Shown here: in pieces, positions 20,518 through 60,316 of the stretch | Layout: every line of letters starts with the position of its first letter | How positions within the stretch are numbered: the stretch's first letter is position 1 | IMG/VR virus record: IMGVR_UViG_3300036861_000610 | Location: 1 to 64,000 of that record | Length of the DNA stretch: 64,000 nt | Reading direction: 5' to 3' (one strand) | Source: a virus | Made by a program: the position numbers and the translations under genes | Notes under the pieces: model-generated | Databases searched by the model: none | Seen by the model: only the letters and a program-made list of their open reading frames with translations | What the model was told of the DNA's origin: nothing

Positions 20518-20759
20518 AAGTCTCCATCTCCGTCATCGCCCGGTACGCCCGCGGCCGACAGGTCCTGATGGTCAAGGCCAGCGACACCCAGAAACCCCAT
20601 CGCGTGGGCGTCGCTCCACTCCTTGACGAAGACGACGACGAGCAGTACGAGGCCGCCGTAGCCGCGGCCGTACAGCAGCTGATGGACAAGAGGACAGCCC
20701 TTCATGGGAGACGTAAGAAGAGACGGCAAGAAGTTGGTGCTGTCAGTAACGACAGCTGA
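20514..20759 (+). CDS. Hypothetical protein
   Basis: SD GAGG; ATGA overlap. Confidence 0.6.
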   Translation: MKVSISVIARYARGRQVLMVKASDTQKPHRVGVAPLLDEDDDEQYEAAVAAAVQQLMDKRTALHGRRKKRRQEVGAVSNDS

Positions 20760-21096
20760 TTGCGAGCTGCAGACCTTTCGGTCCGGAGGATCGGGAGGAC
20801 AAAATCAAAACAAGCGCGACACTGGGGTCAGGTTCATTCATAGAGAATCTGGCGCCCGCGGTGAAGCTCGGGATGAACGATCTCAGCTACAAAACAAGAA
20901 GCTTGCGTGGCGGCGCATGTATGAGACCAAGGAGTTCCAGCTGTGGCTGCGCCGCACTCTCGGTCAAGACGCAGCACGTGAGGCCGAAGAGGCCCGACAT
21001 GTTTCCAATTTTCACGTGCCGGCCGACGAGCTGAAGATCGAAGTGAAGGTCTACGGTCGCTGGGTAGAGGTCGGTGAAGACCTCCACCAGGCATGA
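20704..21096 (+). CDS. Peptide chain release factor-like protein (stand-alone RF-1/GGQ domain)
   Basis: TFRSGGSGGQNQNKRDTGVRFIH...ERSQLQNK. Confidence 0.88.
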   Translation: MGDVRRDGKKLVLSVTTADCELQTFRSGGSGGQNQNKRDTGVRFIHRESGARGEARDERSQLQNKKLAWRRMYETKEFQLWLRRTLGQDAAREAEEARHVSNFHVPADELKIEVKVYGRWVEVGEDLHQA

Positions 21097-40325: not shown

Positions 40326-41012
40326 TTACAAGAAAAAGTGGCGACGCACTTTGAGCAGCCACTCCTCAACCGGCTCCGTGTCCGGCCGCTCCGGCAGCGC
40401 CGGCTCAACCTCCTTGAAGCGGGCCTCATAGCTCAACAGCTGCTCCTCGGCCACCGTTGGATCCTGGGCCACAGCCTCTCCGAACCTGTGATACCAGGCC
40501 GGATTCTCCAGCCTGATCTGCAGCTGCGCCGTCGAGTACAGCTGAAAACCCTGATGCAGCAACCGCAGCAGATGCCGGGCATGCTTCGCAGTCCGCTTCT
40601 TCAAGTCGGACGAGAAGTTCCCCTCCCGCTTGACCAATCGATCAAACTGCTGCCGGGCATAACCCAGGTACGCGGCCTGCACCCGCGGCGCTGACAGGAA
40701 CGACCCCCGGATCTCGATGAGGTCAAGCCCCAGTGGATGCCGGAACTCGTACAGATCCTCAGGCAGCCACAACAACTCGTTGACCGTGGGGTTGCCGCTA
40801 AGCACCAGCCGACAGAACTTGGCCGCCTCGTGGAAGGTGTAATCCGACGGCTTAGTGAAGACCACCGACTCCTGCGGCTCACGCAAACCGTGCAGCATTA
40901 CCGTAGGCATCGCGTACATACCCAGCCGGTCCGTATCGGATTGCGGCGTGGACAAGCCATACGCCTGCGAGCCGACAACGCCCAACAGGAGCACAGCGCC
41001 AGGGGGATTCAT
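40326..41012 (-). CDS. Pol-beta-superfamily nucleotidyltransferase (YcgL/RlaP-like)
   Basis: VGSQAYGLSTPQSDTD; GNPTVNELL; KHARHLLRLL. Confidence 0.85.
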   Translation of the reverse strand: MNPPGAVLLLGVVGSQAYGLSTPQSDTDRLGMYAMPTVMLHGLREPQESVVFTKPSDYTFHEAAKFCRLVLSGNPTVNELLWLPEDLYEFRHPLGLDLIEIRGSFLSAPRVQAAYLGYARQQFDRLVKREGNFSSDLKKRTAKHARHLLRLLHQGFQLYSTAQLQIRLENPAWYHRFGEAVAQDPTVAEEQLLSYEARFKEVEPALPERPDTEPVEEWLLKVRRHFFL

Positions 41013-41023
41013 AGGCCCTCCTC

Positions 41024-41542
41024 TCAGGGACTGGGTGCGCACCAACCGTTGCCACGATTTGGTTGCTCGGTCAAGAAATTCTCGCCAGCCTCAAATGCGG
41101 CCAGCACGTCCTCGACCGGTTCGTCTTCTACGAAGAAGTCGTCATCGTCCATGACTTCGCGAAGCGGCCGGCGCCGCCCGTTGACAGCATTCTCCAGCGC
41201 CTTTTTCAGGGCGGCAACCTGCTTTGGATCCGCGTTGATTTCGTCTGTAATCCGTTGACCTTCTCCTCGGCGTAGCTCCTCCAGCTCTTCCTCGCTGTAG
41301 GTCACAGCTTCCGCAGGATTGGCCACGGAAGCCAGCTCCTTCGCCCGCGCCAACAGCGCCTCATCATCCTCGATCAGCGCCAAGCGCTGCAAAATCTCCT
41401 GGCTGTCGGCGATGACGCGTTCGGCCACCTCCCGGAACTTCTCGGCCCGCAGTTCCTCGGCATACGCCGACAGCTTCTCGATACGCGCCTGCGCCGCCTC
41501 AGTGCCGACGAAGGTGGGTTCGACTACAGGTTCTTCAGCCAT
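41024..41542 (-). CDS. Acidic helical hypothetical protein
   Basis: ORF in operon; Glu-rich. Confidence 0.65.
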   Translation of the reverse strand: MAEEPVVEPTFVGTEAAQARIEKLSAYAEELRAEKFREVAERVIADSQEILQRLALIEDDEALLARAKELASVANPAEAVTYSEEELEELRRGEGQRITDEINADPKQVAALKKALENAVNGRRRPLREVMDDDDFFVEDEPVEDVLAAFEAGENFLTEQPNRGNGWCAPSP

Positions 41543-52230: not shown

Positions 52231-52234
52231 ACTG

Positions 52235-52309
52235 TGCTCACCACGGGATTCGAACCCGTACTGTCGGCCCCCTCAAGACCGTGCCTCCTGCCAGTTGGGC
52301 TAGGTGAGC
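52235..52309 (-). tRNA. tRNA-Leu(GAG), short variable arm
   Basis: Loop TT-GAG-GG. Confidence 0.88.
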
Positions 52310-52315
52310 ATGCGT

Positions 52316-52519
52316 TTATGGTTTCTTTTCGACGAGAAGGTCGGCAACTCGCTGCACCTGTGTCGCCAGATGCAATAGTGCCCAGACCTGAGCATCCTGA
52401 ATTGCTGCCGCGACACAATTTGGATCTTCATGGTGCCAAGATCGTTTGAGTGAACGTCGTGCTTCTCTTTCGAAGTCTTGAACCGTCTCTACGCGTGCTG
52501 CTTCTTCTTTATGATTCAC
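52316..52519 (-). CDS. Hypothetical protein, leaderless after TLD RNA
   Basis: GTG 2 nt after discriminator. Confidence 0.6.
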   Translation of the reverse strand: MNHKEEAARVETVQDFEREARRSLKRSWHHEDPNCVAAAIQDAQVWALLHLATQVQRVADLLVEKKP

Positions 52520-52520
52520 G

Positions 52521-52599
52521 TGAAGCTGCCGGGATTCGAACCCGGGTCCTCGACTATTCCGCTGTACGGTTTTGCAGCCAAGTCGTACCCACCAGCCCC
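52521..52599 (-). ncRNA. Minimal tmRNA-like tRNA-like domain (no mRNA-like domain)
   Basis: GGGGCTG/CAGCTTC-A (G3:U70); stemless D loop; CGACT/AGTCG helix; GAC then T arm CCGGG-TTCGAAT-CCCGG. Confidence 0.65.
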
Positions 52600-52708
52600 A
52601 TTTTGCTTGGCCTTGTCGCTCAGAGCTTCACAGGCCCTTTGCGCCCACATCCGGCGGTGTTACTTAGTACCGCGCCCACCAGATAGCCAAGCTGGTGGGT
52701 TCCTAGCG

Positions 52709-52780
52709 CACCCGGCCAAGGATTCGAACCTCAACTAACAGAGTCAGAGTCTGTTGTCCTGCCATTTAGACCAGCCGGGT
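52709..52780 (-). tRNA. tRNA-Gln(CTG)
   Basis: Loop CT-CTG-AC. Confidence 0.9.
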
Positions 52781-52824: not shown

Positions 52825-53274
52825 TCAGCGCTGAAGGGTGGCCCACGTGGGAGCGTAGGGCTTCACCTTCAGGGTCATACCGGCCTCGTTGGGCAGCCGG
52901 TCACCCTTGAGCTGATTGCACGGGTCGCAACACGCGACGGTGTTGACCCAGGTGTTCTTCCCGTCCCGAGAGACGGGGCGGATGTGGTCCACCGTGGTTC
53001 CCTTGGTGCTGCCGCAGTAGCCGCAGCACCGGTTGTCCCGACGGAGGACGCCAGCCCGAGACCAGGTCGGACCGGCCGTGTATCGCCACTTGGTGACGAT
53101 GAAGCGAAGCAATCTGACAGCGGTTGGCCGAGGCCATGCACCGAACTGTATGTCAGGCTCCGCTTCGTGGATCTCTGCTATACCGCGGCAGAGCATCCGG
53201 ATTGCGTGTCTGAGGCTAACCCGGTGCAGTGGACCGAGGTCAGCGTTCAGAACCATAACTGCTGCCCCTTGCAT
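52825..53274 (-). CDS. HNH endonuclease (McrA-like)
   Basis: VLNAD..PL; RRD..CCGYCG...TTVDHIRPVSR.G..W.N.V.CC..CN..K. Confidence 0.9.
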   Translation of the reverse strand: MQGAAVMVLNADLGPLHRVSLRHAIRMLCRGIAEIHEAEPDIQFGAWPRPTAVRLLRFIVTKWRYTAGPTWSRAGVLRRDNRCCGYCGSTKGTTVDHIRPVSRDGKNTWVNTVACCDPCNQLKGDRLPNEAGMTLKVKPYAPTWATLQR

Positions 53275-58705: not shown

Positions 58706-60316
58706 CTAGCTCGCGGTCTCCCACGGCCAGGACGCCTTCTGCCCCGCCTCGATCAACGGAACCATGCTGAACGTGTGGTCTGTTAGGCCACCCAGCTGGT
58801 GCCGAGTTGACGTGGTGTCCAACATGGCCGGCGCGTAGCCTGCCAGGTTGAAGCTGTAGACCGACGTCTCAGCCGGAACCTGAGCCCCGACATCTCCCTG
58901 CCAGTACCCACGACCCGGCCCGAAGGTCTGCTCGTCGGTCATGATGAAGACGCGGTTGTGGCCCTGGAATGTCGCCTTCAAGGCCGCCGCGGTGTGAGTG
59001 CCACCGCCGCGCACCTTGCGCTTGAACGCCTCGATGTCGCGCAGGATGCTGCCACCCTTGCTGATCTCGAACTTCCAGGGGGTGTTGTCGAAGCCGTAGA
59101 CGTCGACCTTCTCACCCTTGTGCGCCAGTGCCAGTCCAAACAAGGCGGCCTGGTCCACCACCTCGACCTGCGACTTGCCCGACATCCGACCCTTCATCGA
59201 CCCTGACGTGTCGATCAGGATCAGAGTCCGACCTGGTAGCGGCGGGATGTTCGCCGTCGAATACTGCAACGCCAGCTCCAGCGCCGACACCCACTGGGCA
59301 CCGGTTGCGGTGGCGTACGCCGACAGGAACCGGAACGGCAGCTGCCTTGACCGGGCAACCTCGTCAGGGTCGGCCAGACGCTCGTTCACCTGCTTGACAG
59401 CCGCGGCGGAGATCCCCGCCTCCTGGAAGTTGCGCAGGTTGCGCAGCAAAGCCATGTAGCCCATAACTGGGATCAAGGACTCCCACACTTCAGCTGTCAT
59501 CGCACCCCAGGACGAGGCCTGCTCCCAGGTGATGCCGGCATCCCGCAGGATTTCCTCGGAGTCGTCGCCGAGCATCAGGTCACGCTTCGCCTTGTCTGGC
59601 AGGGCCAGGATGGTGGCGCGCTTGTCCAGCACCGCCAGCTGCTGCGAGATCGGCGTCTTCGGGTCCCGACGTACGTCCAGGATGTACTTGAACAGCGCTG
59701 ACTGGGTCAAGCTGGCCGGCTCCGGGTGGGTCAGCTCGATGACATCGGCCATCCGAACCGCCTTGTCCCCGCCGTTCCACTTGATGTACGCGAACTGGTT
59801 GTACTTCGCAGTCGCACCGTCGCCGATTCCACGACGAATACCGGCCGGCAGCTGGCGCCCGTAGGTCGCCAGCCAGTAAGCCAACGCCTCAGCTGGCTCA
59901 TCGGGACGGCCGACCCAGAAGAAACTGCGGAGCAGCTGCCGCGAGTCACCAACCCGAGAACCGGGCTGGTCAGCCTTGAGCATTATCTTGGCAGCTTCGA
60001 CGGCCGCGACGACGGCCGCGGTGCGGATGTTGGCCTTGTCGCGGAGCCAGACGATGAACTCCTTGATCCATGCAGGGTCCTCGGCGGCGACGGTGCGGAC
60101 TAGAGCGGCGAAGCGCTGGTTCCGGTCGCTGGCCTTCTCGTAGAAGGTGTCCTCGCCGTAGAAGTTGGAGACAGCCAGGAGGAAGAGTTCCGACTTGGTC
60201 TCGCGGGTGTAGGCCGGCGCGCCCTCGAACGTCTTGGTGTCCTTGGCCGCAGCACGCAGTGGCGAGCCCGCATTCGGGGTGGCCGTCCTGGTGCCTCGCT
60301 TGTTGGTGGTGGCCAT
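58706..60316 (-). CDS. rsr: Ro60/Rsr (TROVE + vWA) Y-RNA-binding protein
   Basis: ELFLLAV..F..EDTFYE; RPDEP; YMALLRNLRNF; SRQLPFRFLSAY; vWA DTSGSM, GGT, TDEQ. Confidence 0.93.
   Translation of the reverse strand: MATTNKRGTRTATPNAGSPLRAAAKDTKTFEGAPAYTRETKSELFLLAVSNFYGEDTFYEKASDRNQRFAALVRTVAAEDPAWIKEFIVWLRDKANIRTAAVVAAVEAAKIMLKADQPGSRVGDSRQLLRSFFWVGRPDEPAEALAYWLATYGRQLPAGIRRGIGDGATAKYNQFAYIKWNGGDKAVRMADVIELTHPEPASLTQSALFKYILDVRRDPKTPISQQLAVLDKRATILALPDKAKRDLMLGDDSEEILRDAGITWEQASSWGAMTAEVWESLIPVMGYMALLRNLRNFQEAGISAAAVKQVNERLADPDEVARSRQLPFRFLSAYATATGAQWVSALELALQYSTANIPPLPGRTLILIDTSGSMKGRMSGKSQVEVVDQAALFGLALAHKGEKVDVYGFDNTPWKFEISKGGSILRDIEAFKRKVRGGGTHTAAALKATFQGHNRVFIMTDEQTFGPGRGYWQGDVGAQVPAETSVYSFNLAGYAPAMLDTTSTRHQLGGLTDHTFSMVPLIEAGQKASWPWETAS

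Follow-up and report, generated by a model that had tools for sequence, protein, structure and literature searches.

A predicted tag-less mini-tmRNA within a phage tRNA array, and the conserved viral RNA family to which it belongs

The tmRNA-SmpB system is the main ribosome-rescue system of bacteria and is a drug target. A short stretch in the tRNA array of a large phage resembles the two ends of a tmRNA joined together, which raises the question of whether it is a gene in its own right and what such an RNA would do for the phage. The DNA analysed here (the window) is the first 64 kb of a phage record of 147,889 bp that CheckV rates as complete. The phage DNA has weak similarity to the Mycobacterium phages Myrna and Phabba and to large Streptomyces phages, and its minus strand carries about 50-51 tRNA genes between roughly 33 and 57 kb. 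An earlier note on this DNA had described a 79-nt element at 52521-52599 that is like the tRNA-like domain (TLD) of tmRNA; the sequence is found exactly there, on the minus strand.

The RNA gene (52521..52599, minus strand) is the TLD of tmRNA alone, 79 nt from G1 to A73. All of its parts lie on the minus strand. The 5' strand of the acceptor stem, GGGGCUG (52593..52599), pairs with 52522-52528, and the 3' strand CAGCUUC, which holds U70 and U71, is followed by the discriminator A73 (together 52521..52528). The stem has seven base pairs and includes both G3:U70 and G2:U71. The earlier note had pointed to G3:U70 and A73 as alanine determinants, and both are present in the sequence and near-invariant in the family described below. 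Next comes a D-loop analogue of 11 nt without a D stem, GUGGGUACGAC (52582..52592), which aligns to the unpaired GG..UCGAC segment of our family model; the missing D stem had likewise been recognised, and the segment ending in CGAC is indeed unpaired in that model. In the relative L063, a 93-kb phage contig, the analogue is UAGGUACGAC, and it ends in UACGAC in both copies.

The D-loop analogue is followed by the helix P2, whose 5' strand UUGGCUG (52575..52581) pairs with the 3' strand UAGUCGA (52550..52556) in seven base pairs, three of them G-U. Folding the middle segment of the window copy gives the same P2 register as in the family. The earlier note had instead let a helix start at CGAC (CGACU/AGUCG), and this part of its description did not hold. 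That pairing is possible in the window copy only; across 99 homologues the covarying helix starts just after CGAC, which is conserved and is left unpaired by the family model, as it is in tmRNA. P2 encloses an A-rich internal loop CAAAA, an apical hairpin CCGU-ACA-GCGG and a 3' loop AA (52557..52574), homologous to the (U/G)AAAR, CCG-NNNN-CGG hairpin and A(C/A) of other members. Read from the sequence, this segment contains no stop codon and no reading frame. The linker GGAC (52546..52549), a tmRNA hallmark noted earlier as GAC, matches both the Rfam tmRNA consensus and the family model, and it leads into a T arm of CCGGG, loop UUCGAAU and CCCGG (52529..52545) that is evident in the sequence, the Rfam tmRNA model and the family model. 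CCA is not encoded, and CGU follows A73.

The window copy thus contains a tmRNA-type core, made up of a D-loop analogue ending in CGAC, the GGAC linker and a T arm with a UUCRANU loop. A hairpin module of 32 nt separates the two halves of the TLD, and the resume codon, the tag frame with its stop codon and the pseudoknots are all absent. A short closed helix, made up of P2 and the small hairpin, stands in for the mRNA-like domain.

Standard gene finders overlook this gene. ARAGORN called neither a tRNA nor a tmRNA at 52521-52599, and the Rfam tRNA model (RF00005) has no match there at its gathering score. The earlier note had proposed aligning the ends to the tmRNA covariance model. When the Rfam tmRNA model (RF00023) was aligned end to end with its middle deleted, both ends aligned, with a score of 46 bits (E 2.5e-18), one bit below the curated gathering cut-off of 47 bits; the 3' part of the window copy scores 18.3 bits alone. 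We built a family model of 78 positions (R1) from six unrelated metagenomic phage copies, using neither the window copy nor that of mycobacteriophage DS6A. This model matches the window copy over positions 1-78 of 78 with 58.8 bits (E about 7e-13 to 1e-12), and both scores lie far beyond what chance would give. Folding an 81-nt stretch as a single sequence was uninformative (z = -1.0, with an implausible structure).

Other reduced or rearranged tmRNA models fit less well. The mitochondrial tmRNA model (RF02544) matches nothing in the phage genome, which was searched in full at E up to 1. With the permuted two-piece tmRNA model (RF04321) only the T arm and the 3' end align (19.8 bits against a cut-off of 47), and the gene order of the window copy is the standard one, 5' to 3', and not permuted. 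The best local Rfam match is mascRNA/menRNA (52522-52599, minus strand; 32.1 bits against a cut-off of 42.5), a tRNA-like RNA of eukaryotes whose Rfam model has no normal anticodon arm; we read this match as likeness of shape rather than homology. A search of the whole genome with RF00023 found no full tmRNA and no other tmRNA-like match above the level of tRNAs, and the mini-tmRNA is single-copy in this phage. A blastn search of the element against cultured phages returned no homologue, only partial matches to tmRNA 3' ends, namely Wildcat-type tmRNAs and the end of Rhodococcus phage REQ3.

ARAGORN did report 'tmRNAs' at two other loci (L027:2976-3318 and L034:1436-1922), in which an upstream GGGG is joined to the 3' end of a mini-tmRNA. 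These long calls carry implausible tag peptides. Automatic annotation can therefore mislabel mini-tmRNAs as full tmRNAs.

The element belongs to a large family. A strict pattern, which allows no more than 40 nt between the halves of the TLD, was found in 8 viral contigs, and a looser one gave at least 120 matches in viral contigs. With GCAC in place of GGAC, the DS6A copy escaped the regular expressions but was recovered by the covariance model. R1 has 198 matches in the retrieved loci, all spanning the full model except one at a contig end. Altogether the family has at least 159 distinct sequences in viral contigs, mostly of 74-82 nt, with an additional class of about 61-65 nt. No other member of this set exceeds 78% identity to the window copy. 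The nucleotide after A73 is C in 96 of 102 family sequences, and CCA is encoded in 35 of the 102. In bacterial assemblies from several phyla there were about 19 true mini forms among the 120 matches listed, the matches being mostly ordinary tmRNA 3' ends with only 4-6 of the 7 acceptor pairs.

Half of the members (53 of 102, against about 27 expected from shuffling) have UAA or UAG where P2 meets its loop. A stop codon serving as the resume codon was considered and rejected as a family trait, since the U is part of the closing P2 pair, many members have G or C there, and the triplet is absent from both the window copy (CAAAA) and DS6A. The enrichment is probably that of a structural motif, (U/G)AAAR, and not of a stop codon in use.

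Covariation supports the structure. MAFFT alignments mis-registered the 5' end and P2, and a model-based alignment was used instead. In 99 sequences the four helices have standard pairs in 96.9% of the alignment cells, compared with 65.9% in shuffled controls and 42-58% when the partners are slid, and double-sided changes number 669 against 209 in the shuffles; in reading these figures it should be borne in mind that the alignment was fitted to the model and that the search pattern had prescribed the acceptor ends. P2 was in no search pattern, yet it covaries at 7 of its 7 pairs in the same set, and the T arm at 4 of 5.

The acceptor stem was examined separately with a scan whose pattern left it free. 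Among the matches listed there were 70 distinct sequences. G1:C72 and A73 occur in 70 of 70, and G2:C71 and G3:U70 each occur in 69 of 70; pairs 4 to 6 are variable, with compensation. As a pattern free in the acceptor stem still returns a near-invariant alanine set, the alanine identity itself is conserved.

These results bear on the possibility that the element has no function of its own and is what decay has left of a tRNA-Ala or a full phage tmRNA, or else an attP core left by integration into ssrA. The partial blastn matches to phage-borne tmRNA 3' ends (Wildcat-type and REQ3) and the atypical G2:U71 pair, found in the window copy alone and in none of the other 168 sequences compared, could both be read in this way. 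Against it, the four helices covary, the identity elements are conserved, and the position of the gene is kept in the diverged relative L063. The phage has three normal tRNA-Ala genes besides. As to attP, no tyrosine integrase is present in this phage, and one occurs in 7 of the 49 other records among the about 50 carriers; DS6A itself integrates at a tRNA-Lys site and not at ssrA (PMC10865867). Covariation, conserved alanine identity and synteny together exclude a decaying tRNA-Ala or a dead remnant, and the homologues thereby contradict the outcome that the earlier note had named as fatal to its proposal. The mini-tmRNA is conserved under selection. The remnant reading is already largely refuted, and we give it hardly any weight.

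The closest known counterpart is the RNA of mycobacteriophage DS6A. R1 has one site in the DS6A genome (JN698994 28478-28557, 57.2 bits). This site is unannotated in GenBank, and we take it to be the literature's 'Mycobacterium phage DS6A (TLD only)', which is also entered in the tmRNA Website as tmID 11587 (a CDS-less tmRNA). The two RNAs are 79-80 nt long and built alike. In both, the acceptor stem carries G3:U70 and A73, CGAC ends the D-loop analogue, P2 is short, and there are an A-rich loop, a CCG...CGG hairpin and a T arm; they score 57-59 bits on one model built from neither. Both come from actinophages without SmpB, and the RNA is unannotated in both records. DS6A differs in being a 60-kb temperate siphovirus with a lone copy between gp33 and gp34, whereas here the gene lies in a 51-tRNA array of a 148-kb phage. 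The DS6A copy has G2:C71 and GCAC where the window copy has G2:U71 and GGAC.

The comparison extends to other tmRNAs. Bacterial tmRNA (ssrA, RF00023) has the same acceptor stem with alanine identity, D-loop analogue, GGAC and T arm; the window copy lacks about 300 nt of it, comprising the pseudoknots, resume codon, tag frame and stop codon. Tag-less mitochondrial tmRNAs and two plastid CDS-less forms of roughly 65 bp have been reported (PMC11915505). These organellar RNAs (mitochondrial RF02544 and plastid) are also reduced to little more than the TLD, but their reduction is independent, and they are carried by the organelle that uses them while the RNA of the window is virus-borne. An ordinary tRNA-Ala shares G3:U70, A73, the T arm and a 7-bp acceptor stem; it has a D arm and an anticodon arm, which the window copy does not. 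The likeness of the sequences supports reading the element as a tmRNA TLD that lacks the mRNA-like domain and is homologous to that of DS6A. With this homology, no tag frame and no full tmRNA in the phage, the interpretation of the earlier note as a tag-less mini-tmRNA stands. The idea is not new: descriptions of the class, based on the single phage DS6A, date from 2009 and 2014. The window copy is a new, unannotated member, with an unusual G2:U71 pair and an unusual home inside a tRNA array.

In the array, the upstream neighbour of the mini-tmRNA is tRNA-Gln(CUG) (52708..52780, minus strand) and the downstream neighbour is tRNA-Leu(GAG) (52234..52309, minus strand). L063 has the same order of Gln-CUG, mini-tmRNA, Leu-GAG and Thr-UGU, and its copy differs from that of the window by compensatory changes in the acceptor, T and P2 stems. 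The surroundings of the gene show no promoter-like site, and the next tRNA gene holds the one terminator-like site, so the mini-tmRNA is probably co-transcribed with the array. An open reading frame of 67 aa (52316-52519, minus strand) begins with a GTG start 2 nt after A73.

This arrangement might suggest that the RNA is a processing signal, at which cuts by RNase P and a 3' nuclease punctuate the transcript and free the leaderless frame at 52316-52519. Its place among tRNAs, the lack of a promoter or terminator belonging to it, and the frame that starts right after it agree with such a role, as do the copies found elsewhere between terminase and portal genes or at the ends of portal ORFs; the best local Rfam match, mascRNA, is itself a tRNA-like processing product. 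However, any tRNA would do for this purpose, which leaves the conserved tmRNA-type D-loop analogue, GGAC and alanine identity of at least 159 sequences unexplained. The downstream frame has no Pfam match, and things are placed differently in L063, where no stretch is similar to it and a spacer of about 370 nt lies upstream of the RNA instead. We consider a mere processing signal very improbable.

The array is not the usual setting of the family. About three quarters of 60 family loci have no tRNA nearby, and there is no universal neighbour protein or constant neighbour gene across the family. In 11-14 phage lineages the mini-tmRNA is found between the large terminase and portal genes (for example L037:388-3154). 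These copies lie on the same strand as the two genes and about 60-100 nt from each, a placement inside the late structural operon and not among tRNAs. The members of the short class (L016:4018-4078, and also L020, L039, L067, L133, L071 and L054) are found on the coding strand in the last 150 nt or so of a portal ORF of 510-565 aa with a lambda-type portal domain (PF05136). The RNA gene of this class seems to be nested in, or to overlap, the 3' end of the portal gene.

The tRNA array is flanked by a nucleotidyltransferase of the RlaP family (RNA-repair Pol-beta; 40326-41045, minus strand) and by a Ro60 protein with TROVE and vWA domains (58706-60316, minus strand). An HNH endonuclease gene (52825-53274, minus strand) lies just upstream of tRNA-Gln. 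On the plus strand, a 130-aa frame (20704-21096) encodes an RF-1 domain with a GGQ motif (56.5 bits); its product is about as large as ArfB, a rescue factor that acts as a stand-alone protein.

Ro60 could have the mini-tmRNA as its partner RNA, or the RNA could serve some other non-ribosomal user of Ala-tRNA-like molecules. The phage encodes both Ro60 and the RlaP-family protein, and a TROVE domain occurs in 7 of 50 large carrier records among the matches listed, including this phage; the other six are mostly phages of about 93-115 kb. The remaining 43 of the 50 carriers have no TROVE domain. Only four Rfam families matched the stretch at E up to 10, none of them a Y RNA family, and the mini-tmRNA has no Ro-binding stem. 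A non-ribosomal partner of this kind is in our judgement scarcely credible.

Partner proteins were counted in the same 50 large records. SmpB is found neither in this phage nor in any of the 50, and the mini-tmRNA must therefore work with host proteins. No peptidyl-tRNA hydrolase (Pth) is encoded by this phage. The RF-1/GGQ domain is present in just two of 50 other records, the relative G014 and the tRNA-rich phage G012, so its pairing with the mini-tmRNA is not a family trait. An attP role, a link to Ro60 and a fixed pairing with a GGQ factor do not explain the family.

The TLD of tmRNA is charged by alanyl-tRNA synthetase (AlaRS), has about the affinity of a tRNA for EF-Tu, and is bound by SmpB, which takes the place of the missing anticodon arm (PMC8012679). 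To judge by its sequence, the mini-tmRNA keeps all of the TLD parts used by AlaRS, EF-Tu and SmpB. DS6A is listed as having a 'TLD only' tmRNA in PMC4131195, where the passage on this phage, citing Mao et al. 2009, describes a similar molecule as a strong inhibitor of tmRNA that may act by titrating SmpB; as summarised there, inhibition by the DS6A-like molecule did not need chargeability. A passage in PMC11915505, also citing Mao et al. 2009, states that the DS6A form inhibits endogenous tmRNA in E. coli.

We therefore favour, as the probable explanation, a tag-less mini-tmRNA of the DS6A type that competes with host tmRNA for SmpB and stalled ribosomes and so shuts off ssrA tagging. The RNA would be transcribed with the minus-strand tRNA array and excised like a tRNA, and since CCA is not encoded it would be added by the host. 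Host AlaRS would then charge it with alanine by way of G3:U70 and A73, and host SmpB would bind the elbow, which the D-loop analogue, GGAC and the T arm build as in tmRNA. With no resume codon, tag frame or stop codon, the mini-tmRNA could not complete trans-translation. On this view host tmRNA would face a competitor for SmpB, and probably also for EF-Tu and stalled ribosomes, and ssrA tagging would be off during infection. Processing, charging, SmpB binding and benefit to the phage are all inferred. Most likely the RNA uses host SmpB and thereby blocks or bypasses host tagging, an assessment that leans on the published statements about DS6A.

One feature fits this competition imperfectly. 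Inhibition by the DS6A-like molecule without any need of chargeability contrasts with the near-perfect alanine identity of the family, which suggests that charging, and hence action on the ribosome, matters. The apparent selection on alanine identity is not predicted by the idea of an 'SmpB sponge', and simple titration of SmpB may not be the whole story. Action on the ribosome, either as a dead-end acceptor or in a tag-free rescue finished by a GGQ hydrolase, is a serious alternative. The G2:U71 pair of the window copy could weaken charging, where the 168 other sequences have G2:C71.

In tag-free rescue, the alanyl mini-tmRNA would accept the nascent chain on stalled ribosomes together with host SmpB, and a GGQ hydrolase or Pth would release it. 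The releasing factor could be the ArfB-like protein of the phage, host ArfB or Pth; ribosomes would be recycled and the proteins left unmarked for degradation. The near-absolute conservation of G3:U70, A73 and G2:C71, which implies that charging matters, speaks for it, and so does the GGQ/RF-1-domain protein of this phage. Where mitochondria have a tag-less tmRNA together with SmpB, the RNA has been suggested to assist in dealing with incomplete mRNAs (PMC11915505). The rarity of the RF-1-domain gene among other carriers and the lack of a phage Pth weigh against this reading, as does the report, in the passages cited above, of the DS6A-type RNA as an inhibitor. To our knowledge there is no mechanism for release without a stop codon, and this also counts against it. 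On balance we regard tag-free rescue as unlikely, though worth keeping in view. Its fullest form, in which the alanyl mini-tmRNA, host SmpB and the phage GGQ hydrolase together replace the rescue-and-destroy pathway of the host with a phage-run rescue without a tag, seems to us somewhat less likely still. Such a pathway would be of use, for example, when host defences cut mRNAs or tRNAs, and conservation of the alanine set would be its trace.

A natural RNA of this kind, made by a virus and comprising only the SmpB- and AlaRS-binding end of tmRNA, is a ready-made probe, and possibly an inhibitor, of tmRNA-SmpB. The literature found names one phage case, DS6A, and does not describe the breadth of the family reported here. 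For annotation, a real RNA gene had been overlooked by tRNA and tmRNA finders in a phage that also has Ro60, RlaP and a GGQ factor.

Family members are also present in cultured phages, which offer laboratory systems for probing function. They are the Streptomyces phages LuckySocke (OR725497 17977-18054), GiJojo, pSt2308, BRock and Alone3 and the Stenotrophomonas virus Jojan60; the copies of the five phages other than LuckySocke lie in the records PP725410 (17025-17102), PV588686 (33356-33433), KX925554 (97143-97211), OR725492 (18169-18231) and ON045087 (37725-37804). The LuckySocke copy is unannotated and that of GiJojo lies under a 'hypothetical protein' call; the cultured copies are in general either unannotated or covered in this way. 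A complete phage genome of 135,953 bp contains two diverged mini-tmRNAs (L081:6175-6254 and L119:8192-8271), which are about 67 kb apart.
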